DNA of 13,801 bases, from IMG/VR virus record IMGVR_UViG_2534681759_000013. One strand, given 5' to 3'. Position 1 is the stretch's first letter; the number at the start of each line of letters is the position of its first letter. This DNA comes from a virus. Its lineage: Duplodnaviria; Heunggongvirae; Uroviricota; Caudoviricetes. The position numbers were made by a program, and so were the translations under genes. The notes beneath the pieces are model-generated. The model searched no databases. It was given only the letters and a program-made list of their open reading frames with translations, and was not told the origin of the DNA. Shown here piece after piece: positions 1-13,801 of the stretch.

Positions 1-288
1 TTACCGCCGCAGCCGTTCCGGCTTCTTCCACTGGTAAGTATTTTTCGCGCTCTCCCTCCGTTGTTGAGAACGGCGACGGTATGCCAGCAACTCAAGGACT
101 CTTGTTCGTATGTTGCGCATATCCACGCCGTTAAGCTCAATACCGTCACGGAGCATCACCTCAGCCACCACACGCGCGTAATTTTCAGCGGTGACTGTAT
201 CCGGCTGCGCGGCCTGTTCGTCAGCCAACTGGCTGATTCCACCAGCACAGCGGATTAATCGCAGTATTTCAGATTCGGTCATTATCAT
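1..288 (-). CDS. hypothetical protein (95 aa), last gene of the left packaging module
   Basis: Complete ORF in the six-frame track (ATG at 288..286, TAA at 3..1). Its start overlaps the stop of the upstream Nu1-like gene (stop 287..285), indicating translational coupling. GC-rich backbone-type composition. No motif I can name. Confidence 0.45.
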   Translation of the reverse strand: MIMTESEILRLIRCAGGISQLADEQAAQPDTVTAENYARVVAEVMLRDGIELNGVDMRNIRTRVLELLAYRRRSQQRRESAKNTYQWKKPERLRR

Positions 289-770
289 GCCTGTTTTGCG
301 ACCTCATTCACTACGTCATTTTTTACCATCCGGCTGATAATCTGATTACGCAAATCGTCAATAATTGACTGCACTCTGTTTACTGCCATCGGTTTAAGCC
401 CGGCATCACGTGCCAGAATATTGGGGAGTTTTGCCAGTTCCTCGCTTACGATTTCCCCCCATATAGCCATCTCTTTTCGCACATCATCGGCGGGTATGAG
501 TTGCGCCGTTTCCTGTTCGAACCTGAGGCGCTCACGTTCGGACTGATACCAGGCCTTACGGTCATGTGGCTCCATTTCTTCCAGTGATGCCGGAACGGGA
601 AGATCAAGAAAACAGGTCAGAATGTCAGTCACCCGATAGAGTTTTAGCTTGTCATGCCCTCCGGCTGGCTGGATGTTTTTCAGCCTTGCCGCCGCAGTCT
701 GACGACATATTCCCGCTATCGCCGCCAGTTGATTAATGTTCAGCATCAGATTTTTCAGTTCTCGATCCAT
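285..770 (-). CDS. Nu1-like small terminase subunit / DNA-packaging protein (N-terminal HTH)
   Basis: The track ORF 285..857 starts at a TTG; the first ATG is residue 30 (MDRELKNL...), giving 285..770 by codon arithmetic. The N-terminus (LMLNINQLAAIAGICRQTAAARLKN...KLYRVTD) resembles the winged-HTH cosB-binding domain of lambda Nu1 as I remember it. The gene lies directly downstream, on the same strand, of a cos-like site, as in lambdoid phages. A satellite Rpp-like TerS-interacting protein cannot be excluded. Confidence 0.6.
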   Translation of the reverse strand: MDRELKNLMLNINQLAAIAGICRQTAAARLKNIQPAGGHDKLKLYRVTDILTCFLDLPVPASLEEMEPHDRKAWYQSERERLRFEQETAQLIPADDVRKEMAIWGEIVSEELAKLPNILARDAGLKPMAVNRVQSIIDDLRNQIISRMVKNDVVNEVAKQA

Positions 771-949
771 ACCCGCTCCAGAATGTTTTAAACATGCATC
801 TTGCGAACAACTTTCAGAAGAGGTCAAAAAATGCGCTATATGTTGAGCATAAAACAAGCAAAATTAACATGCTAAAAATAAAAATACTTAAAATTCAATA
901 CAATGGAAAGATGATGATGACGAATGAAAATGCAAAAACTAGCCTTTTT

Positions 950-969
950 CCGCGCCGCTCCCGCCCCGT
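950..969 (-). other. cosN-like cohesive-end site, left module (diverged copy)
   Basis: The minus strand reads CCACGGGGCGGGAGCGGCGCGGAAAAAGGC, resembling the lambda cosN region (..TTACGGGGCGGCGACCTCGCGGGTTTTCGC..) as recalled from memory. It sits between the capsid-gene terminator and the Nu1-like gene, and the same block recurs at 4583..4608. Confidence 0.4.
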
Positions 970-996
970 GGCAGGTCACTACACCGGGAGGACCCG

Positions 997-1020
997 CAAA
1001 AAAAGGCGGCTATCGCCGCC
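997..1020 (-). terminator. rho-independent terminator after the left capsid gene
   Basis: On the minus strand, GGCGGC-GATA-GCCGCC forms a perfect 6-bp GC stem followed by a T7 run, beginning 8 nt after the capsid stop codon (1030..1028). Confidence 0.55.
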
Positions 1021-1027
1021 CTTGTTG

Positions 1028-2647
1028 TCATGCTCCACTCGATTTCAGTAATCCGCGATAGTCGAGGGCCGCGACACCTGCATCTATGCGCACCTTCCAG
1101 GCGACGCCATCAACAGTAAATCCCTCCTGCTCCTCAAGATATGGCGTATCAATACCATCAAGATAAGCGACCTCTATCGTGTCCATCCCCTTCGCCGCTG
1201 CCACATACCACTCCTTGTTATTGGCTTTATCAAGACGCGGCTCGACGATAACCTCTGCCATATCTTTCACCACGTTAATGATGCCGGGGTTCTGATTGAT
1301 AGTGCCTCCACCATCAATCGGAAAGAGTGATGACGATGACAGAATGGCGCGATGTGCGGCAGACTCCAGCGCAGCAGGGACCAGAACAAAAGCGGGGGTA
1401 ATATTCAGGGAGTCGCCGTTGCCATCCTCCTGTAATCGCATCAGCTTACGGGCTTCGTTAAGCCCCTCCATGTCCATATCCTTCGCAATAAGATTTTTAT
1501 GATCGGCATGGAATAACGCTTTACCATCCGTAAATTTGCCGTTGCTGGTTAACAGAAGATAAACCAGATTACCTACTGTTCTGGCGGCCGCACGCCCCAT
1601 CGCCATGGGGATTGTAGTTAACTGGGTCAGGTCATCGTTGATAATGGCCTGACGGGTAACAGAAAAAATATTACCGTATGTGGCCAGCGCAATAGGTACA
1701 CCTTTATCGCTGGTGGTGATGTATTTATATTCCGCACCTTCCGGTACTTTATCCAGCTTTGAAAAACCATTCAGACCAACGCGCTTTGCTTCATGAAAGT
1801 TTGAAAGCGATCCGGTACACGTCCATTTCTGGAACGTTTCGCCGCTGTCCTGCCAGCCTTTCAGCACTGATTTTTCAGCACCACCAGCCAGAATATGAGA
1901 AAAATCGCTGCTGCTGTGTGTGAAAGCTGCATTAACGACCTGCGAGCGATTTAAAAAATTGCCAACACTGATACCACGATCAGTTAGTGATGCCTGGGCC
2001 ATTTCAAAAAGGCTCATCATCGCGTAAGGATTTCCCCGCTCTGGGCGTTCATACCCGAGACGAGAATAAAGCCCCTGACGAATTGCATCGCCTGTTATGT
2101 TCCCGTTACCGGCATAAATATGAGTCGGGATATTTTTATTGGATGGCGTGGACTCGCGCCCCAGCTCGTTCAACAACTTTTCACGGGCCATCTCCGGTGT
2201 ACATGATGCATCCTCCAGGCACGCCATTTTGATCCCGTCGTAACGACTGCCGAACAGGCTAAACACTTCACTTATTCCGTTGATGCGCTTCTGTTCATTA
2301 CCAGCAATATTTGCCGCTCCCTGTGGCGGTGTAATCATTCCTTTAATGGTTTCCGGCATATGTAAAAAATCTCCTGTGCGTTTCGATTCAATTCGCGCCA
2401 TTACTCTGACGGATGGCAACAATTCATCAGCAAAACCGTGCTTAAGGCATTCTTTCCCATCCATCCAGGTTTCATCCTCCAGCATGGCGGTAATTTCCTG
2501 TGCTGATTTGCCCGTTTTTCTGGCATAAGCAGGGATTAACACGGTTTCCACCTTATCCAGCAAATCAGCATAATCACGCATATCGCCAGCATTTCCGCCA
2601 GAGATCCCCCACGGTTTATGGATCATCATGCAATACATTGAAATCAT
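1028..2647 (-). CDS. major capsid protein (Mu gpT-like) paralog, 5'-truncated: retains only the distal part of the ClpP-like protease region
   Basis: 539-aa ORF, about 80% identical by eye to residues ~103-638 of the 638-aa protein at 4671..6587. It begins MISMYCMMIHKPWGISGG, so it keeps the ClpP-type His motif (MIHKP) but lacks the upstream ~100 codons that carry the Ser motif GLAASMA. Sequence upstream of 2647 is unrelated to the paralog. An internal ATG at 2638 has a better-spaced AGGA. Confidence 0.6.
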   Translation of the reverse strand: MISMYCMMIHKPWGISGGNAGDMRDYADLLDKVETVLIPAYARKTGKSAQEITAMLEDETWMDGKECLKHGFADELLPSVRVMARIESKRTGDFLHMPETIKGMITPPQGAANIAGNEQKRINGISEVFSLFGSRYDGIKMACLEDASCTPEMAREKLLNELGRESTPSNKNIPTHIYAGNGNITGDAIRQGLYSRLGYERPERGNPYAMMSLFEMAQASLTDRGISVGNFLNRSQVVNAAFTHSSSDFSHILAGGAEKSVLKGWQDSGETFQKWTCTGSLSNFHEAKRVGLNGFSKLDKVPEGAEYKYITTSDKGVPIALATYGNIFSVTRQAIINDDLTQLTTIPMAMGRAAARTVGNLVYLLLTSNGKFTDGKALFHADHKNLIAKDMDMEGLNEARKLMRLQEDGNGDSLNITPAFVLVPAALESAAHRAILSSSSLFPIDGGGTINQNPGIINVVKDMAEVIVEPRLDKANNKEWYVAAAKGMDTIEVAYLDGIDTPYLEEQEGFTVDGVAWKVRIDAGVAALDYRGLLKSSGA

Positions 2648-2696
2648 CCTACTGATAAATAAGATTAAAAATCACAATACAGATACGTTTGAGCTT

Positions 2697-2721
2697 CATT
2701 GCAATACGCATTGCAATACAC
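2697..2721. repeat. tandem ATTGCAAT palindromes (CATTGCAATACGCATTGCAATACAC); second copy at 12779..12801
   Basis: Two copies of the self-complementary octamer ATTGCAAT at 2698..2705 and 2710..2717, 12 bp apart. About 21 of 23 positions match the block immediately upstream of the integrase start codon. Confidence 0.5.
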
Positions 2722-2870
2722 GGTTGCTGGGTGATTTCAAAAGATGAATGCTGCGAAGGATGGAAATTTGGGAACTAGGTGGTGAATAGCACAACAAAAA
2801 ATCAGAATTCTACTAGCTTAAAATGATGCAAAAAGCATTCGTGGCATCGCAAGCGCTGTACAATTCGTTC

Positions 2871-2876
2871 TATAAT
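2871..2876 (+). promoter_or_regulatory. candidate -10 hexamer (TATAAT) for plus-strand transcription into cargo cassette 1
   Basis: Exact TATAAT in the 420-bp intergenic region, about 45 bp upstream of a strong-SD short ORF and about 195 bp upstream of the 3070 start. No convincing -35 identified. Confidence 0.25.
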
Positions 2877-3069
2877 GAAGAAAATTTCTAACAGACTTTA
2901 TCATTCAAAGGTGGAGGAGATGACAGCAATGCAACATGCATCACGCTCATACTTGAATTGTAAAGCTATCGTTAGAATCACAGCCTTTTTGTTCCGCTGA
3001 TCTAACGATAAAACTAGTGGTAAAAGGTATATTTTTTAATTTTTCAGACGCTGGCGCGGGGTAATTAAA

Positions 3070-3372
3070 ATGAAATTTGTAAATATACGGTCATCCGAGT
3101 TGCCTGAAATAGATACCTTTGTAAAAGAATGTATCAACCAAGGACAATGGACTCTTTTCAAGGCCGAGAAGGGTGCAGTTAATGATAATAAAGTTGCTTT
3201 TTTTCTAAAGGCTGGCAAAGATTTCTTTGCATTAAATAACAGAGGAAGTGTTATCTCTGTATTTCAATCATTAGATTATAATCTTGAAATGAATGAGGTA
3301 ATTCATTTTTCAGATATTCCTAAACCTGAATCGTTGAGCAATATTGCTAGCTTAGGATTTGCTAGAGTTTAA
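3070..3372 (+). CDS. hypothetical small protein (100 aa), first gene of AT-rich cargo cassette 1
   Basis: Track ORF with ATG at 3070 preceded by GGGG about 10 nt upstream. AT-rich codon usage (many K/N/I/F) distinct from the backbone. An 18-bp gap separates it from the next gene on the same strand. No recognisable motif. Confidence 0.55.
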   Translation: MKFVNIRSSELPEIDTFVKECINQGQWTLFKAEKGAVNDNKVAFFLKAGKDFFALNNRGSVISVFQSLDYNLEMNEVIHFSDIPKPESLSNIASLGFARV

Positions 3373-3390
3373 TATATAAGGATATGTACG

Positions 3391-4281
3391 ATGGGATTAA
3401 TATCTGGAAATACACATTGGGTATTATTTTTACCTTGTGAGCACCAACCAGAAGATCGCCATGTTCAAGATTTAGTTCATGGCGTCTTTTGCTTAGAATC
3501 CTCAGGTATACAGCCATCTAATATTAGCATATATATTGATGGCCAAAATAGAGCCAACTTTAATAAGTTAATTTCGATTGCAACCCAACATAATTATACT
3601 ATCAAGCCTACATCTGAATTTTTCACCGACTGCGATACAAATAGTTATGAAAATCTAGTTATGTTTGTGACCGGACACGGAAGTATGAATGGTTTGGACT
3701 CTGCGCCGATCATAACCCCATACCGTTTATTGGACAGGTTAAAAAACACTCCTGTTCTCAAGCAAGCAATCGTTTATCTTGGTCAATGTTTCGCTGGTGT
3801 TTTCAACTACTTACCTGCTGGGCAGCGTAAGAGAGGTGAAGATGCCGACCCCGATGTCATTCTTATCGGGGCTACGAGTCTTCATGAAAGTTTGAGTAAT
3901 CCAACAACGGAAAATATTAATGGTATAGATTTTCCTTGGGTTGCAAATCAATTTTTATATCATGTATTTAAGTGGATATCATCCCCGAATGATATCGATG
4001 GGGATGGAAAACATACAGTAATTGACTCTTATAAGTATGCTGGAATCTCATCAAACATGACCAATCGTAGAATGAAGATAGGTTCTTTTGTAGCTTCGGT
4101 AGACTTGCATGAGCAATGGAATACTGCAAAAAAAGATCATGAAGCTAACTTGGCTGATCCACAAAAACTACTCCGTTATAGAGCATTAGATCAGCAATAC
4201 TATGAAAAACTGAACATTAACTATATTCATCAAGAGTGCTGGATATTAAATTCTGTACCTGCACAATCTGTTGAATTCTAA
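3391..4281 (+). CDS. caspase-like (clan CD) cysteine peptidase-like protein with EF-hand-like Ca-binding loop
   Basis: 296 aa. A hydrophobic strand followed by His-Gly (LVMFVTGHGS, H96; codon 3676..3678) and a second hydrophobic strand followed by Cys (AIVYLGQCFAG, C133; codon 3787..3789) match the His/Cys dyad layout of caspase/metacaspase/legumain-type peptidases. DIDGDGKHTVID (residues 201-212, nt 3991..4026) fits the DxDxDGxhxxxD/E EF-hand loop pattern. AAGGA RBS 8-12 nt upstream of the ATG. Confidence 0.6.
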   Translation: MGLISGNTHWVLFLPCEHQPEDRHVQDLVHGVFCLESSGIQPSNISIYIDGQNRANFNKLISIATQHNYTIKPTSEFFTDCDTNSYENLVMFVTGHGSMNGLDSAPIITPYRLLDRLKNTPVLKQAIVYLGQCFAGVFNYLPAGQRKRGEDADPDVILIGATSLHESLSNPTTENINGIDFPWVANQFLYHVFKWISSPNDIDGDGKHTVIDSYKYAGISSNMTNRRMKIGSFVASVDLHEQWNTAKKDHEANLADPQKLLRYRALDQQYYEKLNINYIHQECWILNSVPAQSVEF

Positions 4282-4285
4282 TCCT

Positions 4286-4453
4286 TTACTTTTTTGAATA
4301 GATTGCTGCAAGTGCCGTTTTGAGGTCGTAATTTCGGCACTTGCAACTGCAACCAGAAATAGGGCGAACGTTTGACAAACGTTTAGCTATAGTCTGCCGA
4401 TGAAATCCAGTCACTTCCGCCAACTCACTTAAATTTAGAACTATCTTTTTCAT
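4286..4453 (-). CDS. short Nu1-like HTH DNA-binding protein (55 aa); apparently a truncated small-terminase gene
   Basis: Not in the ORF track (below its length cut-off); found by hand translation: MKKIVLNLSELAEVTGFHRQTIAKRLSNVRPISGCSCKCRNYDLKTALAAIYSKK. AAGGG SD 5-6 nt upstream of ATG 4453..4451, TAA at 4288..4286. It aligns across its whole length to the N-terminal HTH region of the 285..770 protein. It lies downstream of the cos-like site, and its stop is 4 bp from the convergent stop of the 3391..4281 gene. Confidence 0.5.
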   Translation of the reverse strand: MKKIVLNLSELAEVTGFHRQTIAKRLSNVRPISGCSCKCRNYDLKTALAAIYSKK

Positions 4454-4582
4454 CATAATTACCCTTCAGATGTCGAACAAATAACATACAATCCATCATC
4501 TTTTCCACTTTTATAAAGTTTTACCTAATAAAATTCAGTTAGTTAGCGAATGATGATGATGTCTATAAAATTCAAAAACTAG

Positions 4583-4608
4583 CCGTTTCCCGCGATGCCG
4601 CCGCCCCG
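4583..4608 (-). other. lambda-like cosN cohesive-end site of the satellite
   Basis: The minus strand reads CCTGCCACGGGGCGGCGGCATCGCGGGAAACGGCTAGTTTTTGAATTTTAT. Against lambda cos as recalled (CAGGTTACGGGGCGGCGACCTCGCGGGTTTTCGCTATTTATGAAAATTTT), the 11-mer ACGGGGCGGCG and the 7-mer TCGCGGG are identical and the flank is similar. It is followed about 140 bp later by the Nu1-like HTH gene on the same strand. Confidence 0.5.
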
Positions 4609-4634
4609 TGGCAGGCATCCCCGCCGGGAGTACC

Positions 4635-4662
4635 TTTTAAAAAAGGGCAGCATCTGCCGCCC
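4635..4662 (-). terminator. rho-independent terminator after the protease-capsid gene
   Basis: On the minus strand, GGGCGGC-AGAT-GCTGCCC forms a 7-bp stem (one G-U pair) followed by TTTTTT, 8 nt after the capsid stop (4673..4671). Homologous in position and form to 997..1020. Confidence 0.55.
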
Positions 4663-4670
4663 TCCTGTCG

Positions 4671-6587
4671 TCATGCCGCCCCGCTCGACTTCACCATGCC
4701 CCGATAATCCAGCGCCGCCACGCCAGCATCGATACGCACCTTCCATGCAATACCGTCCACAGTGAAGCCCTCCTGCTGTTCCAGATACGGCACGTCCATT
4801 CCATCCAGATATGCCACCTCGATAGTGTCGGTGCCTTGCGCTGCAGTGACGTACCACTCCTTGTTGTTGGCCTTGTCCAGTCGCGGCTCAACCACTACCT
4901 GCGCCATATCCTTCACGACGTTGATAATGCCTGGGTTCTGGTTCAGCATACCGTTCTGGTCTACCGGGAACAGCGAAGATGATGACAGCACAGCTCGATT
5001 GGCTGCGCCTTCCAGCGCGGCAGGTACAAGGATATAGGCTGGGATAACATTAATAGGATCGCCGTTCGCATCCTCCTGCAGACGCATAGCCTTACGGGCC
5101 TCATTGAGTCCGTCTGTATCCATCCCTTTAGCGATGAGGTTTTTATGGTCGGCGTGGAACAACGCTTTACCATCTGTGAATTTGCTGTTGGCGGTCAGTT
5201 GCAGGTAGACCAGATTGCCAACCGTTCGTGCGGCGGCACGCCCCATTGCCTGTGGAATGGTCGTGAGCTGGCTCAGGTCATCGTTGATAATGGCCTGGCG
5301 TGTAACAGAGAAGATGTTTCCATAGGTGGCCAGCGCGATCGGCACACCGCTGTCGCTGGTAGTGACATATTTGTATTCAGCACCTTCCGGGACTTTATCC
5401 AGTTCTGAAAAACCATTCAGACCGACACGTTTAGCCTCATGGAAATTCGACAGAGAACCGGTCTTTGTCCACTGCTGGAAAGTTTCCCCGCTGTTCTGCC
5501 AGCCAGTCAGCACCGACTTTTCAGCACCACCAGCCAGGATATGAGAGAAATCACTGGTGCTGTGCGTAAATGCCAGGTTCACGATCTGCGAGCGATTCCC
5601 GAAACCACTGACGCTGATACCACGATCCACCAGCGAAGCCTGCGCCATTTCAAACAGACTCATCATGGCGTAAGGGTTTCCCCTTTCGGCGCGTTCGTGA
5701 CCCAGACGGGCAAAAAGCCCCTGGCGGATAGCATCGCCGGTAATGTTGCCGTTACCTGCGTAAATGTGCGCGTTACTGGTTTTATCCGATGGGGTCGAGG
5801 TCTTACCCAGTGCCGTCAGCAGCATGTCTTTTGCTTTTTCAGGCGTGCAATCCACATCCTCCAGACACTGCATCTTGAGAGAATCATGCTTGCCGCCGAA
5901 CATGGCAAACAGATCCTTAATCTCGTTGATGCGGTTCTGTTCCGGTACAGCGCTACTGGTGGAACCTTTCGGGCTGGTGATCATCCCTTTAATTTCTTTT
6001 GGCATATGCTCAAAATCCTCAATTCGTTTTGACTCAATACAGGCCATTGCCCTGACGGCGGGTAACAATTCGTCAGCAAAACCCTGCGCTACACATTCGC
6101 GGCCATCCATCCATGTTTCATCCTCCAGCATTTCCGCCAGTGATTCGGCTGATTTACCCGTTTTGCGTGCATATGCCGGGATCAAGACACTTTCGACTTT
6201 ATCCAGAAGTTCGGCGTAGTCGCGCATGTCGTTGGCGTTCCCACCAGAGATTCCCCACGGTTTGTGAATCATCATGAGTGCGTTTTCGGGCATAACGATA
6301 CGGTCGCCAGCCATTGCAATAACTGACGCCATAGACGCGGCGAGACCGTCGATCTGCACTGTAATTTTTGCCGGGTGTTTATTCAGAAGGTTATAGATAG
6401 CGATGCCGTCAAAAACATCGCCACCGGGTGAATGAATGTGCAGGCTGATATGGGAGATATCGCCTAGGGCTTTCAGGTCTTCGGAGAACTGCTGCGCCGT
6501 AATACCCCAGCCGCCGATCTCTTCGTAGATGCTGATATTGGCGCTGGTGCCATCGCTGGCCGCTTTGATGGTGTACCAGCCTTTCAT
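4671..6587 (-). CDS. ClpP-like prohead protease fused to major capsid protein (Mu gpT-like)
   Basis: 638-aa ORF. The N-terminal ~180 aa carry ClpP/S49-type motifs (GLAASMASVIAMAGD with Ser85; MMIHKPWGISGG with His108). The C-terminal ~450 aa resemble Mu-like major head subunits as I recall them. The start ATG (6587..6585) overlaps the stop of the upstream small gene (ATGA). Confidence 0.85.
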   Translation of the reverse strand: MKGWYTIKAASDGTSANISIYEEIGGWGITAQQFSEDLKALGDISHISLHIHSPGGDVFDGIAIYNLLNKHPAKITVQIDGLAASMASVIAMAGDRIVMPENALMMIHKPWGISGGNANDMRDYAELLDKVESVLIPAYARKTGKSAESLAEMLEDETWMDGRECVAQGFADELLPAVRAMACIESKRIEDFEHMPKEIKGMITSPKGSTSSAVPEQNRINEIKDLFAMFGGKHDSLKMQCLEDVDCTPEKAKDMLLTALGKTSTPSDKTSNAHIYAGNGNITGDAIRQGLFARLGHERAERGNPYAMMSLFEMAQASLVDRGISVSGFGNRSQIVNLAFTHSTSDFSHILAGGAEKSVLTGWQNSGETFQQWTKTGSLSNFHEAKRVGLNGFSELDKVPEGAEYKYVTTSDSGVPIALATYGNIFSVTRQAIINDDLSQLTTIPQAMGRAAARTVGNLVYLQLTANSKFTDGKALFHADHKNLIAKGMDTDGLNEARKAMRLQEDANGDPINVIPAYILVPAALEGAANRAVLSSSSLFPVDQNGMLNQNPGIINVVKDMAQVVVEPRLDKANNKEWYVTAAQGTDTIEVAYLDGMDVPYLEQQEGFTVDGIAWKVRIDAGVAALDYRGMVKSSGAA

Positions 6588-6796
6588 TTTTCACCTTCCG
6601 TTACAGCGAAGCCATTTTCATCAAGCCATGCGTTGACTGCGTGCCGGACTACCTGTGCCACTCCGGGCAATGGCTGGACAGGAAGATTTTTCAGATGATC
6701 GTTGCGGTATTGCTTAAGGCGTACAACGGTTTGCGCGTCCAGATGTACGGAGCCGCCTTTAGTCTCGCCAGTGTTTAAATCGTTAATGTCACTCAT
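6584..6796 (-). CDS. hypothetical small protein (70 aa) translationally coupled to the protease-capsid gene
   Basis: The track ORF 6584..6844 starts at an alternative codon; the internal ATG at 6796 (MSDINDLNTGETKGG...) has AGAGGA 5 nt upstream. Its stop overlaps the capsid start. Confidence 0.5.
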   Translation of the reverse strand: MSDINDLNTGETKGGSVHLDAQTVVRLKQYRNDHLKNLPVQPLPGVAQVVRHAVNAWLDENGFAVTEGEK

Positions 6797-6941
6797 GATG
6801 TCCTCTACTGTATAAGTAAACAGGTTATGATGATTGATCACCAAAAGTGGTAAGTGAACAATTTTTTATCTGAAAAATAGATTTATGATGAAAAAAAATT
6901 TTTGTATGGTCTTAGATTGGAATAAACAGAAAGGTTAAAAA

Positions 6942-7655
6942 ATGGATCTCACTCGTAATGACGAACTCCTTTTGAATGATGCAGCTAGACGCTCATTTCG
7001 GGATATGGCAGACCAGGATTATCTCTCAGCTCGTCTGTGTTATAAGCACAAATTGAATTTTCAATTTTTATGGCTTTCGCAACAAGCCGTAGAGAAATAT
7101 ATTAAAGCGATTTTACTTTATAATAGAGTTCCAGTATTAAAATTAAATCACAATTTAAACAAAGGGCTGGCAAAGATTAAAGAAATCCCATATCTTGAAT
7201 TAGACCTAGATGTAAAAAGTGAGCGATTCATAGATTATCTCAATGAGCAGGGCCCAAATAGATACTTCCAAAACACTATGTATACCGAAGGCTTTGAAAT
7301 TATAACCTTGGATAGAACCATCTGGGAATTAAGAAGATACTGCAAGCCACTAAACTACTCAATTACTAACCCAAAAGGTGAAGTGATAGAAATGTTAGAA
7401 CATGAATTGAGTAGCATAAAAAATTCGAAGTCGAGGCCTTATCATACGTTCAAACTATTTGGAGGTTACTTAGAAAAAAGATTAAAAGATAATAAATTCA
7501 ATCAGGGCGACATACTTACATGGAAAAATTTATTTTTTGGAAGAAATAAAAAAAATGCAATTAGAATTGGAAGATCAATGCATGTAACTCATCCAACTCA
7601 TTATATGTACCCAAATGCAACGGAAATGCTCAGTCGTTTCTTTAAAATAAAATAA
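6942..7655 (+). CDS. hypothetical protein (237 aa), AT-rich cargo cassette 2; possible HEPN-like all-alpha N-terminus (weak)
   Basis: Track ORF with AAAGG RBS, strongly AT-rich, on the strand opposite the backbone and divergent from the capsid operon. The N-terminal segment (QQAVEKYIKAILLYNRVPVLKLNHNLNKG) has an R-x7-H arrangement loosely reminiscent of the HEPN Rx4-6H motif, but this is not convincing without a profile search. Confidence 0.55.
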   Translation: MDLTRNDELLLNDAARRSFRDMADQDYLSARLCYKHKLNFQFLWLSQQAVEKYIKAILLYNRVPVLKLNHNLNKGLAKIKEIPYLELDLDVKSERFIDYLNEQGPNRYFQNTMYTEGFEIITLDRTIWELRRYCKPLNYSITNPKGEVIEMLEHELSSIKNSKSRPYHTFKLFGGYLEKRLKDNKFNQGDILTWKNLFFGRNKKNAIRIGRSMHVTHPTHYMYPNATEMLSRFFKIK

Positions 7656-7755
7656 TTACATTCCAATTTTATTTACCGCTGTTAAATAAGTAAGGTATAT
7701 CTTTATTTATCGACATTGATAATCATGAAAGAGTATATCTTTTTTGCCGCACCTA

Positions 7756-7962
7756 GCGCATTTCTCACCGCACTTTCATCCCGCGCACTTAGGTGCGCAA
7801 TCCAACATGCACCGTACAGCCATTAAAACCAGTAATGGGGCGGGTTTGCAGGTGATTAATGCCAAACCGCGCACTTTCTTCGTATATACATGGAAAAAGT
7901 GCGGCAAGTGTATGTTTTATGAGCATTTCGCGCATCACGCGCATTTCTTGCCGCACTTTTCA
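7756..7962. repeat. iteron-like repeat cluster, putative satellite origin of replication
   Basis: GCGCATTTCTCACCGCACTTTCA (7756..7778) and GCGCATTTCTTGCCGCACTTTTCA (7939..7962) are near-identical direct repeats. Related copies include the palindrome GCGCACTTAGGTGCGC (7783..7798), CGCGCACTTTCTTCG (~7868..7882) and an inverted copy AAAAAGTGCGGCAAGTG (7895..7911). The cluster lies immediately 3' of the replication ATPase gene, where PICI-type origins usually sit. Confidence 0.4.
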
Positions 7963-7964
7963 GG

Positions 7965-9374
7965 TTAAATTATCGTGATATCTCCTGAATCATCGATAAA
8001 GATAATATTCTCCCTAACGAGTTTATCAAGCCAGCGTTTAAAACCTTTGCGGCCGTTCTCTCCAAACAGAGTGGTAATATCATCACGTATAACAGAGACA
8101 TTACACGGTTCACCTTTGGCTTTTCGGCTCCGGATTGACTGCCAGAGTGCAGCGTGGTTCCCAGTCAGGTGCTTGATATCAGCAAGTTCCGGATCAGGTT
8201 CTCGTGCCTCTCGTGGCAGGTCCTGCACCACCAGCGACGAAATAAGCTCACCATCACGATCTGTGAACAATTCGATCGGACGCAGATCGAATGCGGCCTG
8301 TTTCGGCTCCTCCGCATCTTTCATCTTCGTACAGGTCAGGATTATCGCCCCACCATCCCCCTCGCGCCGGACATTGAACTCTGCATCGAGCGCAGCCCTG
8401 AAAGCACTGGAACCACGTGCGCCTTTGGTATCGTCTTTTCCTGAATGATGCACCACCAGCAACGTGGCGCCAGTCTCACGCTTGATGACGTCGCAGCCTT
8501 CAATAAACGCCCCCATGTCACGAGCATCGTTTTCATCGTTACCACCAAAGCACCGCGCTAGAGTATCTATGACAATCAGGCGAACCGGCTGCCCCGTTTT
8601 GGACTTAACGTCACGCGCAGCTTTGATCATCTCCTGCATTTCCTCACGGCGAACCGGGAAAACCGGACGGTTTACCAGATACAGATTATTTAGTTTCACA
8701 CCATGTTTTTTCTCCCACGCCTTTATTCGCCGCGGAACGCCAATACCACCTTCACCTACTACGTACATCACAGCGCCGGCTGATACCGACTTCCCCGCCC
8801 ACTTCATCCCGGCTGCAACGTGACAAGCCCAGGACACCACCAGAAAACTTTTATACGAACCGCTCGGGCCGTAGATACTGCTCAGGCTGTTAGCGGGAAG
8901 ATAACTTTTTAACGTGTAATCCTGCTCCTGATCGTACCCATCAGAGCCCACGCTTAAAGGAAGGCTGTGCCGCAGTGACTCCTCTCGCACAGAGACTTCA
9001 ACCTGTTCACGCAGACGAGAAAGATATTCCCTCCAGTCCTCAGGCTCATGGTCGGGGATTCCTTTATACAATTTGGCATCCTGCACGCCAGCCAGCGCCA
9101 GCTTTTCAGCAATGTTATTAATCTGGATAGGCTTTATATTCCCTGCCAGGTAAATCCGCACGGCACGACGGCCATCATCCACAATGCGCAGGTTATCCAG
9201 CTCTGCCAGTTGTTTTGGCCCAAGGTAAACAGGAGGAGTGGTATCTTCGGCAATCTGTTTACCAAGCCCCTCTTCCCAACCCTTCGCATGGGCGTATGCT
9301 TCTGACCCGGCAAAAATAACTGCCTCCGTGAATTTTTCTTTTGGCAGGTGTTTCAGATTCGGTGCGTTTTTCAT
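7965..9374 (-). CDS. replication initiator / helicase-type RecA-fold P-loop ATPase (RepA/DnaB-like) with an unknown N-terminal domain
   Basis: 469-aa ORF. Walker A (IYGPSGSYKSF), Walker B-like (RLIVIDTLARCFGG) and a downstream LLVVHHSGKDDTKGARGSSAF segment are typical of AAA_25/RepA-like replicative ATPases found in PICI and P4-like primase-helicase genes. Its start overlaps the stop of the upstream gene. Confidence 0.85.
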   Translation of the reverse strand: MKNAPNLKHLPKEKFTEAVIFAGSEAYAHAKGWEEGLGKQIAEDTTPPVYLGPKQLAELDNLRIVDDGRRAVRIYLAGNIKPIQINNIAEKLALAGVQDAKLYKGIPDHEPEDWREYLSRLREQVEVSVREESLRHSLPLSVGSDGYDQEQDYTLKSYLPANSLSSIYGPSGSYKSFLVVSWACHVAAGMKWAGKSVSAGAVMYVVGEGGIGVPRRIKAWEKKHGVKLNNLYLVNRPVFPVRREEMQEMIKAARDVKSKTGQPVRLIVIDTLARCFGGNDENDARDMGAFIEGCDVIKRETGATLLVVHHSGKDDTKGARGSSAFRAALDAEFNVRREGDGGAIILTCTKMKDAEEPKQAAFDLRPIELFTDRDGELISSLVVQDLPREAREPDPELADIKHLTGNHAALWQSIRSRKAKGEPCNVSVIRDDITTLFGENGRKGFKRWLDKLVRENIIFIDDSGDITII

Positions 9375-9694
9375 TTCAGCCCCTTATCCCATCCGTCAGA
9401 TCCAACACTCAGCGGCAGAGAAGAGCGCAGAGCAGCGATTTTTTTACGCACGTTTTCTTTTACGGTCTCCTGCCACTCCCTGCTTTCCTCAGGGAGATAA
9501 ATAAATTCTTTTCGGAACCGGTACTCAGAAAAAATACACTCATGTGAATACCCATCCCGGACATACGTAATACGGCTATCCGTTATGCATGTGACAGTAA
9601 TTTTTTCTCCGCGAGAATCTTTCCAGCGACTGTTAAGCTCGATTTTTGGTTGAGCGATGCCCTCAGGCTGAACCTGATTGAATTTTTTAATCAT
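9371..9694 (-). CDS. hypothetical protein (107 aa); C-terminus shares the SLPLSVGSDG linker motif with the replication ATPase
   Basis: Track ORF with AAGGA SD 8 nt upstream of ATG 9694. The stop is coupled to the ATPase start. The C-terminal ~30 aa are similar to residues ~110-145 of the 7965..9374 protein. Confidence 0.55.
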   Translation of the reverse strand: MIKKFNQVQPEGIAQPKIELNSRWKDSRGEKITVTCITDSRITYVRDGYSHECIFSEYRFRKEFIYLPEESREWQETVKENVRKKIAALRSSLPLSVGSDGWDKGLK

Positions 9695-9698
9695 GAAT

Positions 9699-9878
9699 TT
9701 ATTCCTTGTCGGTAGCCGTTAAACCGTATGCTTCAGCAGCCTGACGAACTGCCTGGATAAAACCTTCCGGTGTGGCCACGATTTCGTCCGGACGAAGGCG
9801 GCGCTCTGTAACCTGACCGTTTTTAACCGTCACCAGTACGCGGATCTCGTAATCAGCAGGTAAGGCGGAGTTATCCAT
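9699..9878 (-). CDS. hypothetical small protein (59 aa)
   Basis: Internal ATG ([15 protein letters not shown]...) of track ORF 9699..10004. It overlaps the stop of the upstream gene (caTGGAtaa arrangement) and ends 4 nt before the next start, so it is tightly packed in the operon. Confidence 0.4.
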
Positions 9879-10158
9879 GGCGCACCTCCATTGGCACAGC
9901 TTCATTGCTGTAAGGATCGCTACCCAAGATGCTCCATAGGGTGCGATGTTCAGGATCCATAAACGACACTGAGAGCGGGCTTTCTGTTCGGATTTTGGCG
10001 GCAAAGGTCAAGTCCCAGCCGCAGAACTTTGCACGGGCAGTATCTTCAGTGTCTGCAATGGTGCGCAGAACTATCGGGAGACAAGAGTGACCTCGCGGCG
10101 TGCCAAGGAATAGCCATGTAAATTTTGGGCGAGTTTGGGTATGCTGTTGATCAGCCAT
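9871..10158 (-). CDS. hypothetical protein (95 aa), first gene of the replication operon
   Basis: Internal ATG at 10158 ([13 protein letters not shown]...) of track ORF 9871..10215, with GAGGT SD about 7 nt upstream. Divergent from the RHH gene across an operator-like intergenic region. Confidence 0.45.
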
Positions 10159-10251
10159 AACTGTTACCTCAACTAACGGTTTGTGGTTAGACGTCCCGTG
10201 AGTGGTTCCAAGCACTTCCGGGACGTTGCTTTTTTCACGTCAAGCGTGATA

Positions 10252-10289
10252 ACGTACGTAATAGCAACATCCTATGAGGTTACGTACGT
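10252..10289. promoter_or_regulatory. paired ACGTACGT palindromes, candidate operator in the divergent promoter region
   Basis: The palindromic octamer ACGTACGT occurs at 10252..10259 and 10282..10289 (30 bp centre to centre), between the divergently oriented 10158 start (minus) and 10292 start (plus). The second copy sits just upstream of the RHH gene ATG. Confidence 0.45.
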
Positions 10290-10291
10290 AC

Positions 10292-10483
10292 ATGTCAACA
10301 ATAAAACGAGATAAAACACCCAAAGGAGAGGGCTTGTCTCCGACATTCCAAATCCGAATAAGTCCTGAATTGCGCCAGCAGATGAATGAAGCTGCTGAGC
10401 GTGAGGGAGTAAGTCTTGGTAATTGGCTTAAAGGTCTGGCTAGAAATGAACTTATTAAGCAAGGAATTGAACCTAAAGGTTAG
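10292..10483 (+). CDS. ribbon-helix-helix (Arc/CopG-like) DNA-binding protein, candidate repressor
   Basis: Second ATG of track ORF 10274..10483 (the first ATG lies inside the operator palindrome). 63 aa with a beta-strand then two helices (TFQIRISPEL / RQQMNEAAEREG / VSLGNWLKGLARNEL), typical of RHH regulators. GAGGT about 11 nt upstream. Confidence 0.6.
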   Translation: MSTIKRDKTPKGEGLSPTFQIRISPELRQQMNEAAEREGVSLGNWLKGLARNELIKQGIEPKG

Positions 10484-10536
10484 TTTTCACAAGCACTCTT
10501 TGATTTTTTCAGTAAAAATTAAATTAAGGAAATTCT

Positions 10537-11247
10537 ATGGATGATTTATATACACCATCTGAATATTTTATGTTCGTAGAGAAATTTGATCATTACTTCC
10601 CACGAAAAAGCCCTTTTAACTCATTATTATTCGAGTTCAATTATAGATTAGAAGATATAGTTGTTTTTCATCGCTTTGTTATCAACACCTATTCAAAAAA
10701 TAAAAAAGCAATTGATGTACAATATAATAAATTTAATTTTCTTGATGATAAACAAAAAAATTCCCTTTCTGATGACGAGTATGAAGCGTATCAACTCAGG
10801 TTTGCAAGGCATATGGAATACATTAACCATCAAACTGATTTGAATGAAAAAGCGTCTTACATTGCTAACGATAGTGTCGTTATAAACTTATGGGCCATGA
10901 ATGAACAATATATGACTAGAGGATTGGCCAACCTAATATCTCAAAAAGAAAATAAAAATTTAAATGAAGTTAAAACGCCTTACAAATGGGATACAATCAA
11001 AAGTAAATTCCTGTCATATGGAATCAACTTTGAGACATTGCCATCTTATGATGACATTAATGAATGTAGAGTACTGAATAATAAAATAAAACATCTGAAC
11101 ATAGTAGATTCTGGTTTAGAAGTTTTCCCTCCCTTCAAAGGTAAGCTTAACGAATCACTTACTGGCATGGCCTTTCCTCTTCAAAAATATATCATAGGCT
11201 CTCATCACTTTATAGGAATGCTATTAGAAGAGTGCTCATTAAAATAA
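10537..11247 (+). CDS. hypothetical protein (236 aa), AT-rich cargo cassette 3, downstream of the RHH gene
   Basis: Track ORF with AAGGAA RBS 6-12 nt upstream, strongly AT-rich, 53 bp after the RHH stop on the same strand. No recognisable catalytic motif. Confidence 0.6.
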   Translation: MDDLYTPSEYFMFVEKFDHYFPRKSPFNSLLFEFNYRLEDIVVFHRFVINTYSKNKKAIDVQYNKFNFLDDKQKNSLSDDEYEAYQLRFARHMEYINHQTDLNEKASYIANDSVVINLWAMNEQYMTRGLANLISQKENKNLNEVKTPYKWDTIKSKFLSYGINFETLPSYDDINECRVLNNKIKHLNIVDSGLEVFPPFKGKLNESLTGMAFPLQKYIIGSHHFIGMLLEECSLK

Positions 11248-11251
11248 ACGC

Positions 11252-11288
11252 ATGGCAACGTATAATTTATCGCTTAATACGTTGCCAT
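11252..11288. terminator. hairpin between convergent genes (candidate bidirectional terminator)
   Basis: Perfect 11-bp inverted repeat ATGGCAACGTA / TACGTTGCCAT (11252..11262 and 11278..11288) with a 15-nt loop. It is 5 nt after the 10537..11247 stop and 6 nt after the alpA stop, with U-rich tracts on both transcribed strands. Confidence 0.5.
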
Positions 11289-11293
11289 ATCTC

Positions 11294-11530
11294 TCATTTA
11301 TTTTTATCGAACCAATCTCCTTTAATCCAAGCTTGCATCTCTGAGAGCCGGTAAGCAACTGCTGACGGCCCAATTTTGATTCGCTTAGGAAATTTTCCTT
11401 CCTGTTCCATGCGCCAGCGCGTTGAGTTAGACAACGTAGTCATAGCCCGGCATTCAGGTTCGCGAATCATTCTGTCAAGGTCAGGCATGTACTGGAGATC
11501 TTCTTTTTTCACAACGGATAACATAGCCAT
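11294..11530 (-). CDS. alpA: AlpA-family phage regulatory protein (excisionase-like HTH)
   Basis: The track ORF starts at GTG 11539; the first ATG is at 11530 (MAMLSVVKKE...) with AAGGAG 8 nt upstream. The segment AMTTLSNSTRWRMEQEGKFPKRIKIGPSAVAYRLSEMQAWI matches the AlpA/Xis-like HTH pattern. It lies immediately downstream of the integrase gene. Confidence 0.7.
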   Translation of the reverse strand: MAMLSVVKKEDLQYMPDLDRMIREPECRAMTTLSNSTRWRMEQEGKFPKRIKIGPSAVAYRLSEMQAWIKGDWFDKNK

Positions 11531-11531
11531 A

Positions 11532-12767
11532 TCAGGCACTCCTTTTCTTAATTACTTTTACTGTATTTTCTTCACCCACCAGCCCATCAAGGTAGTCAAC
11601 CCATCGGTCCAGTGCTTCTTGCTTTTGAGGGATATACTTGCTGCGGTTATAGACTCCGGCCACGCCCTTTATGGTATGCCCCAGCAGCTGCTCTACGACC
11701 ATAAAATCAACGCCCATATCGTTAAGGCTTGTCGAGAACGTTCGTCTCAAATCATGTAATGACCAGCGTTTTTCATGTTTCAGAGAGATAAAGTTTGTGC
11801 ATCCCATCGTACTGACGGTTGAATCAGATTTCAGTTCGCCAAATATGTAGCCTCTCCTTTTAGTCTCTTCGTGCAGGTTTACGATCCACTGGCGCATTTT
11901 TTGAGGAACGGGGCGAATAATTTCTTCGCCGTTTTTACTGTGCTCTTTAGGTACTGTCCAAATCCACTTATCGAAATCCCACTCATCCCATGTAGATAAA
12001 CGCGCCTCACTCAGCCTGCAGCCAAACACGAGACACAAAATCGCCATCCTTTTTTTGTAATTCATTACACGGGTTTTGCCTTTACCATGAAAGTACACTC
12101 CCCACAGATCGGCGACGTAGCTTTCCTCAAGTAGCCGCTCTCTCTTGTTCTGATACTTACCGATATCACCAGGGCTCAAATCATCAAGCACATTGCACCG
12201 CACATACTGGCGCACCCGGCAGTATTTGAAGATCTGCTTTAACTCAATCAGCATTGCAGCAGACTGAACCGGCGCGATTTTCTTTATGCGGTCGAAGCAC
12301 TTGATCCAGTCTGACAGACCGCATTTCTCGACAGGAAACCCGCCGATGTAGGGAAAAATGTATCTCTCATAACGGCGATAGAGCCGTAAAGTCTCTTTGC
12401 GCTTTTCCCTGGCATAGTTATCAAACCAGTAATCGATAGCGTTCTTCACAGTTACTGGAGTGAACAGGTTCTCTTTGGTGAGTTTGTTCTCTATTCGTGG
12501 GTCGAGTCCCTGAGATAGCCATGCCCGGCACTCGTCCCTTTTCTCTCTGGCCTGTTTAAGGGTCATATCTGGATACTTGCCTAACGTCATCCAGACGGGG
12601 GCGCTTTGTCGGCCGGAATGTCTGAAGAAATACACAAAGCTCACAGTGCCACTAACGCTCACTCTGACAGACAGTCCACGACCATCTGCCACCATCTTTT
12701 GACGCGGCTGGGGTTTACCATGTAAGGCCTTTAACGCCTTGTCGCTTAACTTGTTCTCGCCCGCCAT
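11532..12767 (-). CDS. int: tyrosine recombinase / phage integrase, P4-type
   Basis: 411-aa ORF with an N-terminal arm-binding-type region (GRGLSVRVSVSGTVSFVYFFR) and C-terminal catalytic signatures (HDLRRTFSTSL ... LLGHT ... YNRSKY). GAGG SD 5-8 nt upstream of the ATG. Confidence 0.9.
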   Translation of the reverse strand: MAGENKLSDKALKALHGKPQPRQKMVADGRGLSVRVSVSGTVSFVYFFRHSGRQSAPVWMTLGKYPDMTLKQAREKRDECRAWLSQGLDPRIENKLTKENLFTPVTVKNAIDYWFDNYAREKRKETLRLYRRYERYIFPYIGGFPVEKCGLSDWIKCFDRIKKIAPVQSAAMLIELKQIFKYCRVRQYVRCNVLDDLSPGDIGKYQNKRERLLEESYVADLWGVYFHGKGKTRVMNYKKRMAILCLVFGCRLSEARLSTWDEWDFDKWIWTVPKEHSKNGEEIIRPVPQKMRQWIVNLHEETKRRGYIFGELKSDSTVSTMGCTNFISLKHEKRWSLHDLRRTFSTSLNDMGVDFMVVEQLLGHTIKGVAGVYNRSKYIPQKQEALDRWVDYLDGLVGEENTVKVIKKRSA

Positions 12768-12778
12768 AAAACCTCATT

Positions 12779-12801
12779 CTGCAATACACATTGCAATACA
12801 C
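12779..12801. repeat. second copy of the ATTGCAAT tandem-palindrome block (CTGCAATACACATTGCAATACAC), 12-34 bp upstream of the integrase ATG
   Basis: Near-identical to 2699..2721. It contains the palindromic octamer ATTGCAAT at 12790..12797 and a degenerate copy 12 bp upstream. Confidence 0.5.
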
Positions 12802-12944
12802 ACTTAACTGCAACGCCGAAAAACAGTAGAAAAGCAATGCAAACAACACCTCTTCTTTCGTAAGCGCATCATTTAAACCGTCTTTCGCCTCCCTTTCCTG
12901 TTTCCGATACTAATGTCCATTTTCGCAGTAAAAGGACATTTAAG

Positions 12945-13595
12945 ATGAATGCACGAAAGGCGGTACTGGCAGATAACCCGGAATTGATCCTGCGTGTGCT
13001 ACAGCTGAGATTTGACGAGTCACTGTCGTACCCGCGCATTTCTGCGCAGACCGGTGTCAGCAAAACCGCCATTTTTTCTCTGGTGAGGCGATTTCACCAG
13101 ATATTCGCTGACTGGCCTCTTTCCGGTGAATATTCCTGCATGCAACTGGCCCGGGCTCTTTTCCCTGGGCGATATCCTTCAGCCCCGACAGTGACTCAGC
13201 CTGTGAAAACAGAGAAAATCCGCCGGAACCGATTTTCACCGGAGTTTAAATGGAGGCTTGTTCAGCAAACTCTTTTACCCGGTGCCTGTGTCGCACAAAT
13301 AGCTCGCGAGAACGGAATCAACGATAACCTGCTCTTTAACTGGCGGCATCTCTGGCGTAACGGCGGCCTGCAGCCGCCCGGCGAACATGAAACATCGCTA
13401 CTTCCCGTGACGTTAACGCCGGAGCCGGATAATAAAATCCCGGCACCAGTGCAGATACCTGAACAGATAAATACACTGCCAGACAGTCTGTGCTGCGAGC
13501 TGGTTCTGCCGGCCGGAACTCTCAGGCTGAAAGGTGAACTGACACCGGCGTTATTACAGACACTTATCCGCGAAATGAAAGGGAGCAGCCACTGA
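12945..13595 (+). CDS. tnpA: IS66-family accessory protein TnpA (orf1), with an N-terminal extension or alternative start
   Basis: The central segment RRNRFSPEFKWRLVQQTLLPGACVAQIARENGINDNLLFNWRHLWRNG matches the conserved IS66 Orf1 HTH core as I remember it. The 216-aa ORF is longer than I would expect for this family, so the true start may be internal. Confidence 0.7.
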   Translation: MNARKAVLADNPELILRVLQLRFDESLSYPRISAQTGVSKTAIFSLVRRFHQIFADWPLSGEYSCMQLARALFPGRYPSAPTVTQPVKTEKIRRNRFSPEFKWRLVQQTLLPGACVAQIARENGINDNLLFNWRHLWRNGGLQPPGEHETSLLPVTLTPEPDNKIPAPVQIPEQINTLPDSLCCELVLPAGTLRLKGELTPALLQTLIREMKGSSH

Positions 13596-13801
13596 TGATA
13601 TCTCTCCCTGCCGGTTCGCGTATCTGGCTGGTTGCCGGTATCACCGATATGCGAAATGGCTTTAACGGCCTGGCCTCAAAAGTTCAGAACGTCCTGAAGG
13701 ATGACCCGTTCTCCGGGCATCTGTTCATCTTCCGCGGACGCCGGGGTGACCAGATAAAAGTGCTGTGGGCTGACAGTGACGGACTGTGCCTCTTCACCAA
13801 A
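13595..13801 (+). CDS. tnpB: IS66-family TnpB (orf2), 3'-partial
   Basis: Hand translation from ATG 13595 gives MISLPAGSRIWLVAGITDMRNGFNGLASKVQNVLKDDPFSGHLFIFRGRRGDQIKVLWADSDGLCLFTK, the conserved IS66 Orf2 N-terminus as I recall it. It is absent from the track because it runs off the window without a stop. Confidence 0.8.
   Translation, partial: MISLPAGSRIWLVAGITDMRNGFNGLASKVQNVLKDDPFSGHLFIFRGRRGDQIKVLWADSDGLCLFTK

Follow-up and report, generated by a model that had tools for sequence, protein, structure and literature searches.

Evidence for three exchangeable AT-rich accessory slots in a helper-embedded phage satellite of Escherichia coli, with an apparent antisense preference at the 3′ slot only

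Why should three AT-rich gene islands of one phage satellite all lie on the strand opposite to its other genes? The question is raised by a 13,801-nt stretch of viral DNA (Caudoviricetes), IMG/VR record IMGVR_UViG_2534681759_000013 (hereafter the window, meaning the whole stretch analysed), which belongs to an E. coli chromosome, its positions 1-12859 being 100% identical to strain 90-9280 and others. The satellite embedded in it occupies positions 2618-12859 (~10.3 kb) and is a helper-embedded phage-inducible chromosomal island (HE-PICI) of site type C:CLP_protease:110. An original prediction, made from the letters of the window, held that the three islands are independent acquisition hotspots and that their orientation, opposite to the entire backbone, shields cargo expression from the transcription of the backbone upon induction. 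The reading we favour, and hold to be likely, is that of an HE-PICI with three swappable accessory slots, in which an antisense rule applies at the 3′ slot only.

The predicted composition was readily recovered. Windowed GC profiles show three troughs of 30-36% GC, against 50% for the backbone:

2650-4460, plus strand: hotspot 1, accessory region at the 3′ end, GC 0.364
6890-7743, plus strand: hotspot 2, beside the replication genes and origin (rep/ori), GC 0.316
10484-11311, plus strand: hotspot 3, 5′ region between alpA and a ribbon-helix-helix (RHH) regulator gene, GC 0.302

In the rest of the element (GC 0.500), 800-nt windows have a standard deviation of 0.027 and a minimum of 0.455, and a compositional discontinuity is therefore present. 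The GC content of third codon positions is 0.25-0.33 in the plus-strand cargo versus 0.44-0.60 for most backbone genes. As had also been claimed, the five open reading frames (ORFs) of the troughs are all on the plus strand:

3070-3372, plus strand: c1a, 100 aa, matched only by a PHROG of unknown function
3391-4281, plus strand: c1b, 296 aa, with a legumain/caspase-like clan CD protease fold
6942-7655, plus strand: HEPN-domain protein, 237 aa (PF05168, 25.4 bits versus a cut-off of 22, E = 1.6e-5)
10274-10483, plus strand: RHH regulator gene (HicB / YlcI-YnfO / Arc-like; Pfam HicB, NCBIfam YlcI_YnfO_N, PHROG Arc-like repressor)
10537-11247, plus strand: c3b, 236 aa, all-helical

The noted stop/start coupling of the backbone is likewise present, neighbouring genes overlapping by 4-8 nt. 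Strand and composition do not coincide throughout: the terS-like gene is AT-rich (GC 0.40) yet lies on the minus strand, which leaves island 1 without a clean boundary by gene strand. Moreover, three of three modules on one strand is within chance expectation (p = 0.25 for all sharing a strand).

Variation among relatives was assessed in ~90 related elements from other genomes, viral contigs and metagenomes (individual loci carry L numbers below), anchored on backbone proteins; an E. coli megablast was uninformative for variation, as the element occurs in 9 of the 5426 complete genomes and all copies are at least 99.9% identical. Breakpoints were judged against elements with 92-100% identical integrases and 90-100% identical capsid proteins. 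In these alignments, the backbone is conserved and the three positions vary. Homology breaks at 2643-2649 and 4376-4574 around hotspot 1, at 6885-6889 (seen in L145, L154, L164, L169 and L175) and 7744-7756 around hotspot 2, and at 10482/3 (10222-10299 if the RHH allele also differs) and 11312-11324 around hotspot 3; these intervals coincide with the GC troughs, and their flanks are backbone (a conserved segment at 6830-6889, an iteron block, the alpA end and the att arm). Within them, relatives hold other genes, nearly all of 31-42% GC, and each slot has at least 9 to 11 AT-rich gene families (at least 100 aa) among elements with capsid identity of at least 86% or integrase identity of at least 90%. 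Accessory hotspots whose content varies among close relatives thus lie after alpA, after repA/ori and before att.

The modules also assort independently. The c1a-c1b pair is combined with a different 5′ gene in L086 and L166 and occurs with or without c3b, which itself stands alongside four different rep-side genes (L090, L146, L169). The HEPN protein has homologues of 62-65% identity in elements whose integrases are unrelated, where they sit in the matching slot and on the same relative strand, and after clustering each cargo family is restricted to one slot. With different AT-rich genes behind sharp shared breakpoints, the prediction of three independent acquisition hotspots is supported. 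Had the islands belonged to the core of the family, relatives would be expected to carry the same genes throughout; no such pattern was found, with the RHH gene as the one exception.

This gene, which the original prediction had counted within its third island (10292..11247), has an intermediate GC of 0.42 and a PGAP start at 10292. Of the 61 related elements for which the sequence sufficed, 31 yielded a homologue in an iterative profile search, in every case on the opposite strand, and it recurs whatever gene lies downstream, including in elements with other integrases; PGAP places an opposite-strand YlcI/YnfO gene here in four further E. coli family members. Because it recurs in these relatives regardless of downstream content, the RHH gene is best read, on its sequence and distribution, as a conserved plus-strand regulator of the backbone or family, and this distribution rules it out as cargo. 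It follows that the backbone is not all on one strand, as had been supposed, and that island 3 comprises only 10484-11311: its AT-rich cargo part stands, and the RHH gene had been misfiled.

Upstream, the RHH gene faces the Icd-like operon:

10159-10273: divergent control region flanked by the Icd-like operon and the RHH gene, its palindromic arms bearing ACGT repeats

Together, the gene and this region are the only part of 9700-11700 that is conserved (80%, at the DNA level) in other E. coli satellites, an arrangement that suggests a regulator. It also bears on the view that the islands are toxin-antitoxin or addiction modules stabilising the satellite, with, for example, the RHH protein as antitoxin of a HEPN-like toxin, or the HEPN protein as a lone toxin. 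HEPN toxins normally pair with MNT partners, and no MNT partner is present. An antitoxin would be expected to keep its toxin, and the RHH gene is followed by at least six unrelated genes in relatives and also stands alone, as in E. coli relatives that have unrelated downstream genes or none. We therefore regard such modules as unlikely here; toxin-antitoxin and abortive-infection roles are compatible with each other.

Several smaller features were noted in and around this control region. ACGT tetranucleotide runs lie on either side of AATAGCAACATCCTATGAGGTT at 10252-10292, with two ACGT units in the window versus three in strain 90-9280 and two metagenome relatives, and the 4-bp length difference probably falls in an operator or promoter; a consensus scan places a -35/-10-like site at 10298-10269 on the minus strand. 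The RHH allele tracks the neighbouring 5′-slot cargo (L003, L086, L154, L169 and others), being 100% identical where c3b is present, ~65% with a 395-aa DUF5677 gene, ~70% with PD-T7-1 and 56% with a co-oriented 207-aa gene, and regulator and cargo thus appear often to be swapped as one block. In L107, the RHH match lies inside the N-terminus of a 350-aa DUF3800 ORF.

To what extent is orientation a rule? For the close clade, and counted as distinct AT-rich families (GC at most 0.42, 100 aa or longer), the cargo of the three slots is distributed as follows:

3′ end slot: 10 opposite, 1 co-oriented
rep-adjacent slot: 4 opposite, 6 co-oriented
5′ slot: 6 opposite, 3 co-oriented

The sole exception at the 3′ end arises from ORF calling across a c1a homologue and is an artefact. 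Co-oriented cargo is backed by Pfam beside rep (DUF4238, DUF4145/HEPN_Swt1) and at the 5′ slot (DUF2971); four further loci are consistent with these counts, and more co-oriented cases occur in L196. Most of the opposite-strand cargo of the 5′ slot comes straight after the RHH gene, itself on the opposite strand, at a distance of 53 nt here and ~20-27 nt in L003 and L154, and probably shares its transcript; in loci that lack the RHH gene, cargo tends to come after alpA and to lie on the backbone strand. The opposite strand of 5′ cargo is thus explained by its riding behind the RHH gene, and insulation is not needed. That all three islands are antisense in the window is partly a matter of slot-specific habits and partly coincidence.

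These counts bear directly on the idea that the antisense placement of all three islands has been selected as a design for insulating cargo from induction-driven backbone transcription. It is consistent with the five plus-strand genes opposing the backbone here and with the 10:1 ratio at the 3′ slot. It also accords with the proposal that helper late transcription reads into and through co-oriented HE-PICIs (PMC10111431), and with phi80, where taiEcA lies antisense within the Q-dependent late operon, is expressed in the lysogen and falls when Q is overexpressed (PMC11364771). Against it stand the mixed orientation at two of the three slots, with Pfam-supported co-oriented cargo, and the fact that one of the five 'cargo' genes is a conserved regulator. 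In addition, the convergent genes ending at 4281 and 4286 are only 4 bp apart, so that their transcripts would collide rather than be insulated. As a general design, insulation is not borne out by the relatives, and we consider it doubtful; at best it may be true for the 3′ slot, for which phi80 tai offers a precedent by analogy.

What, then, do the slots carry? The most informative case is c1b. The protein itself has no Pfam match, but its AlphaFold model (pLDDT 89.7) is matched by Foldseek to legumain, PIGK and caspase-8: the 45 PDB matches at E ≤ 1e-3 are legumains, glycosylphosphatidylinositol (GPI) transamidase subunits and related asparaginyl endopeptidases/ligases, with caspase-8 next (E = 1.1e-3 to 1.5e-3) and a TM-score of ~0.48 for the top matches. 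Its family has a near-constant length of ~296 aa across Enterobacteria, Pseudomonas, Burkholderia, Vibrio and Xanthomonas at ~50% identity, a few of its members being named caspase or peptidase C13, and His96 (in TGHG) and Cys133 (in GQC) are invariant in 20 aligned sequences. On the model and this alignment, c1b is predicted to combine a caspase-hemoglobinase fold with a conserved His-Cys dyad. The c1a and c1b protease cassette is widespread in Proteobacteria and absent from PADLOC. In the Klebsiella chromosome (L178-L181), a 96-aa gene and a c1b homologue are flanked by ompW on one side and a 2OG-Fe oxygenase gene on the other, and no satellite is close by, the ~96-aa gene being likened to c1a by its size and its place directly upstream of the c1b homologue.

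The other cargo proteins gave fewer matches. For the HEPN protein, tblastn found none in the phage collection; c3b, in which R178 and H186 are conserved, is probably HEPN-like, and a profile search of it against PDB sequences found nothing. NCBIfam and PHROGs returned only the RHH assignment and the c1a PHROG for the five plus-strand proteins, and a full-text search with their five RefSeq protein accessions found no paper. Relatives are more telling: PD-T7-1 occupies the 5′ slot of one (E = 3e-156) and PDC-S31 the 3′ slot of another, and the slots of others hold Mrr_cat, DUF4238, DUF4145/HEPN_Swt1, DUF3800, DUF2971 and DUF5677 proteins. Because a HEPN protein and a clan CD protease are found here, and PD-T7-1 and PDC-S31 in the same slots of relatives, the cargo looks like defence; it is plausible that the window's genes are of the anti-phage or abortive-infection type, as candidates by context.

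Could the islands instead be neutral, recently acquired AT-rich DNA, possibly silenced by H-NS, whose strand and position reflect tolerated insertion? Their positions, in intergenic gaps between operons and beside att, would be the least harmful ones, and the absence of PADLOC matches fits as well. So does the 3′ slot of some relatives (L106, L113, L169), a stretch of ~1675 bp at 33% GC with no ORF of at least 70 aa that suggests decay; the ORF-less DNA may be a decayed cassette or a non-coding feature, and in L107 a 3′ slot of equal length holds a 186-aa ORF. Neutral DNA would not, however, be expected to retain intact conserved ORFs, such as c1b with its ~50% identity, constant length and invariant dyad across gamma- and beta-proteobacteria, or the HEPN gene kept at 62-65% identity in diverged backbones, nor to share its slots with known defence genes. 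We consider this explanation quite improbable.

Still less probable, in our view, is that the plus-strand genes are fixed components of the satellite's own life cycle, acting for example in helper interference, capsid-size redirection or the control of packaging. Positions beside the late module and cos could suit a role in packaging, and the terS-like protein has only 56 aa; yet the genes are absent, or replaced by unrelated ones, in near-identical backbones, and a cassette resembling c1a-c1b occurs at the Klebsiella chromosomal site without a satellite.

We therefore return to the reading of an HE-PICI with three swappable slots. Its backbone would run in one direction, from int-alpA through the icd-like to repA genes with ori, the small gene, the protease/capsid gene and cos to the terS-like gene, matching the interrupted late gene, and the three AT-rich segments would be slots, one following alpA, one following rep/ori and one at the 3′ end ahead of att. 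Conserved backbone flanks would allow recombination to swap the content of a slot as a cassette, this content being, in all likelihood, low-GC foreign DNA with a turnover much faster than that of the backbone. Cargo would most likely be expressed while the satellite is quiescent; on the opposite strand, it would lie outside induction-driven or helper late read-through transcripts and, if phi80 tai is a guide, could be damped by them. Orientation would be consistent at the 3′ slot only, follow the divergent regulator at the 5′ slot and be arbitrary beside rep.

Several points weigh against this reading. The gene calls of related loci are the longest ORFs inside anchor-defined intervals and are uncurated; many loci are near-duplicates, for which reason counts were made per gene family and the numbers are small. 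The mixed orientation at two of the three slots means that orientation-based regulation cannot be general. A consensus scan yielded 16 promoter-like and 10 terminator-like sites versus 24.6 and 13.8 in shuffles, which is below the shuffle expectation and uninformative. Finally, as PADLOC matched none of the five plus-strand proteins, their defence role is inferred from context only.

A more ambitious combination can be envisaged, in which the antisense rule of the 3′ slot reflects regulatory coupling of a kind peculiar to helper-embedded satellites and c1a-c1b is a previously undescribed anti-phage system; that both hold is improbable. If they did, inward-facing 3′ cargo could not drive the downstream late genes of the helper during prophage quiescence, and helper late read-through at induction would shut the 3′ cargo off, as a satellite version of the phi80 'noncontiguous operon'. 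A search against Rfam (E ≤ 1) gave no match, and C4/isrK-type immunity RNAs of some PICI 'Bro' zones are thus absent from the window.

The assignment to HE-PICIs rests on the integration site and its flanks. The element is inserted inside a phage-type late gene, with no replacement sequence restoring the target, and its int, alpA and replication genes are co-oriented with this interrupted gene (all minus). The features of the site are:

2618-2629: att identity block ATGGATCATCAT at the left junction, within the codons of the MMIH motif of the ClpP-like protease
2700-2722, plus strand: left copy of the doubled, HE-PICI-specific arm-type motif, tGCAATACgcattGCAATACAc
12780-12803, plus strand: second copy of the doubled HE-PICI motif, tGCAATACAcattGCAATACAcac

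An identical 12-mer is present at the opposite junction (L001 24935-24946). Both element ends bear the doubled motif tGCAATACAcantGCAATACAca, the left copy being the published tgTGTATTGCantgTGTATTGCa in reverse complement (PMC10111431), and two co-oriented copies of the latter flank the attP centre. Measured from the identity block, they lie at about 76-88 bp and 137-149 bp according to the reference point chosen, which matches the published distances of about 81 and 132 bp only approximately. Relatives are inserted at the equal point, aa 105-110 of the capsid fusion; at least 15 occupy the matching codon range in prophage capsid genes, and in Kluyvera, viral-collection and metagenome contigs integrases of 92-100% identity are invariably found beside this ClpP/capsid site. 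That the duplicated capsid gene arose by tandem duplication or by homologous recombination was rejected in view of the exact flanking halves, the 12-bp block and the same junction in other genera. Most relatives have the same integrase type in the matching codon range of a lambdoid prophage capsid gene; L081 and L084 are family members that split a prophage terL gene instead.

Set beside known systems, the window closely resembles published HE-PICIs in its ClpP-like protease integration point, its co-orientation, its two copies of the doubled TGTATTGC motif, its order of int-alpA, dynamic zone, replication and late zone, and its nesting in a PICI by tRNA-Ile (PMC10111431). It differs in having an insertion sequence (IS) between the satellite and the attR core. 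That paper, which lists 491 HE-PICIs and 2701 PICIs, describes 'Bro' and 'Late' dynamic zones and unidirectional non-hypothetical genes, and contains no discussion of AT-rich opposite-strand cargo, defence genes or a rep-adjacent slot. For PICIs more generally, either end, 5′ or 3′, has been reported to house immune systems (Fillol-Salom et al. 2022, as cited by He et al. 2024, PMC11364771). In 2024 a further accessory region was described beside pri, and genes there that PADLOC and DefenseFinder do not recognise turned out to be protective (He et al. 2024, PMC11364771). The window shares three slots at matching relative places, variable content and genes often unknown to these tools; those reports concern chromosomal PICIs, whereas the window is helper-embedded and its cargo role is drawn from sequence.

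In the phi80 taiEcA 'noncontiguous operon', as in the islands, a compositionally distinct gene lies between backbone genes. The 'moron' concept of lambdoid phages invites the same comparison. Hotspots of P4-like satellites and P2 (Rousset et al. 2022, PMC9122126) are similar to the slots in their conserved flanks, rapid cassette swapping and defence-type cargo; P4 belongs to another satellite family with other backbone genes and has one main hotspot, versus three here, and a 2026 Nucleic Acids Research study (PMC13586616) found no defence homologues common to P4/P2 and PICIs.

The element type, the composite nesting, the three-slot architecture and the antisense precedent are thus already known. 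The modest addition is that helper-embedded satellites show the same three accessory slots as ordinary PICIs. The boundaries of hotspot 2, and that of hotspot 3 on its alpA side, are mapped to within ~5-15 bp. The slots provide a small catalogue of candidate defence genes unrecognised by 2023 defence databases, comprising the legumain/caspase-like two-gene cassette, the HEPN and HEPN-like proteins, and the DUF4238, DUF3800, DUF2971 and DUF5677 proteins. That a strand bias is seen at the 3′ slot alone is a minor point, open to testing, on how cargo may be wired to helper late transcription.

The backbone of the satellite comprises the following genes and non-coding segments:

11532-12767, minus strand: tyrosine integrase (Pfam)
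11294-11539, minus strand: AlpA (Pfam)
7965-10158, minus strand: replication/early operon
9871-10158, minus strand: Icd-like gene (Pfam/NCBIfam/PHROG, PGAP)
9699-9878, minus strand: 59-aa gene
9371-9694, minus strand: DUF4222 gene (Pfam/NCBIfam/PHROG, PGAP)
7965-9374, minus strand: repA, RepA-type AAA_25 helicase (Pfam/NCBIfam/PHROG, PGAP)
7743-7960: iteron-rich block downstream of repA, backbone and not cargo
6830-6889: conserved ~57-bp segment upstream of the late module, at the left edge of hotspot 2
4671-6844, minus strand: late module
6584-6844, minus strand: small 86-aa gene of the late module (PHROG 4934)
4671-6587, minus strand: ClpP-like prohead protease/major capsid fusion (Pfam CLP_protease and Phage_capsid_4)
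4550-4634, minus strand: cos-like segment between the capsid and terS-like genes
4286-4456, minus strand: terS-like gene, 56 aa, GC 0.40 (Pfam DUF1441 positions 1-46 of 147; PHROG terminase small subunit)

The block at 7743-7960 contains direct and inverted CCGCACTT / GCGCA(C/T)TT / GCGCATTT repeats around an AT-rich palindrome and is kept together with repA in L154, L164 and L169, features that make it the probable origin of replication; a 74-aa plus-strand ORF over it (7744-7968) is probably spurious. The segment at 6830-6889 is 82-86% identical in L002, L003 and L004 though the adjoining cargo is unrelated. At least 12 surrounding helper prophages have, ~70 bp ahead of their DUF1441 terS gene, a sequence ~80% identical to the ~85-nt segment at 4550-4634, which on this similarity is likely to be the cos region; a terminator-like hairpin (4646-4658) came from the consensus scan. 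The cos-like similarity to helper prophages and the iterons of the satellite's own origin are sequence hints of helper-dependent mobilisation. The 56-aa terS-like gene corresponds only to the N-terminal helix-turn-helix (HTH) part of DUF1441 / small terminase. Relatives have 85-aa versions at 50-67% identity, followed in close relatives (L003 12060-12903) by a backbone-strand 199-aa gene like lambda tail assembly protein I. From the truncated version here, set against 85 aa plus a tail gene there, it appears that cassette exchange at the 3′ slot extends into the late zone.

Outside the satellite, the window holds part of an older tRNA-Ile2 PICI ('element B'), whose ClpP-protease/capsid gene the HE-PICI interrupts, together with an IS:

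1-2647, minus strand: right-hand remnant of element B, the interrupted target (Pfam, H1/L001 annotation)
1-288, minus strand: 95-aa gene of element B
285-857, minus strand: full DUF1441 terS-like gene of element B (Pfam)
1028-2647, minus strand: 5′-truncated ClpP-protease/capsid fusion of element B (Pfam)
12860-13801, plus strand: IS outside the satellite, with terminal GTAAGCG and an HTH_Tnp_1 orfA at 12945-13595 (Pfam)

A composite of an HE-PICI inside a tRNA-Ile2 PICI has already been published as a rarer form (Tommasini, Mageeney & Williams 2023, PMC10111431). In strain 90-9280 (H1/L001), the N-terminal piece of the split capsid gene that is absent from the window sits directly beyond int, and past it follows a second satellite with primase, DUF4222, Icd-like, YlcI, HTH and integrase genes and tRNA-Ile at the far end. 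The nested composite spans L001 11384-31833. Element B has one cos-like copy ahead of its terS-like gene (about 906-1022) and a second between its late module and primase (L001 25780-25856).

Similarity to H1-H3 stops at 12859, and these lack the IS, which by its terminal repeats is probably of the IS66 family. It is inserted ~75 bp short of the attR core position of other strains, past the integrase-side doubled motif, and in this strain has probably cut the satellite off from its excision site. In H4, an IS100 is found elsewhere in the element.

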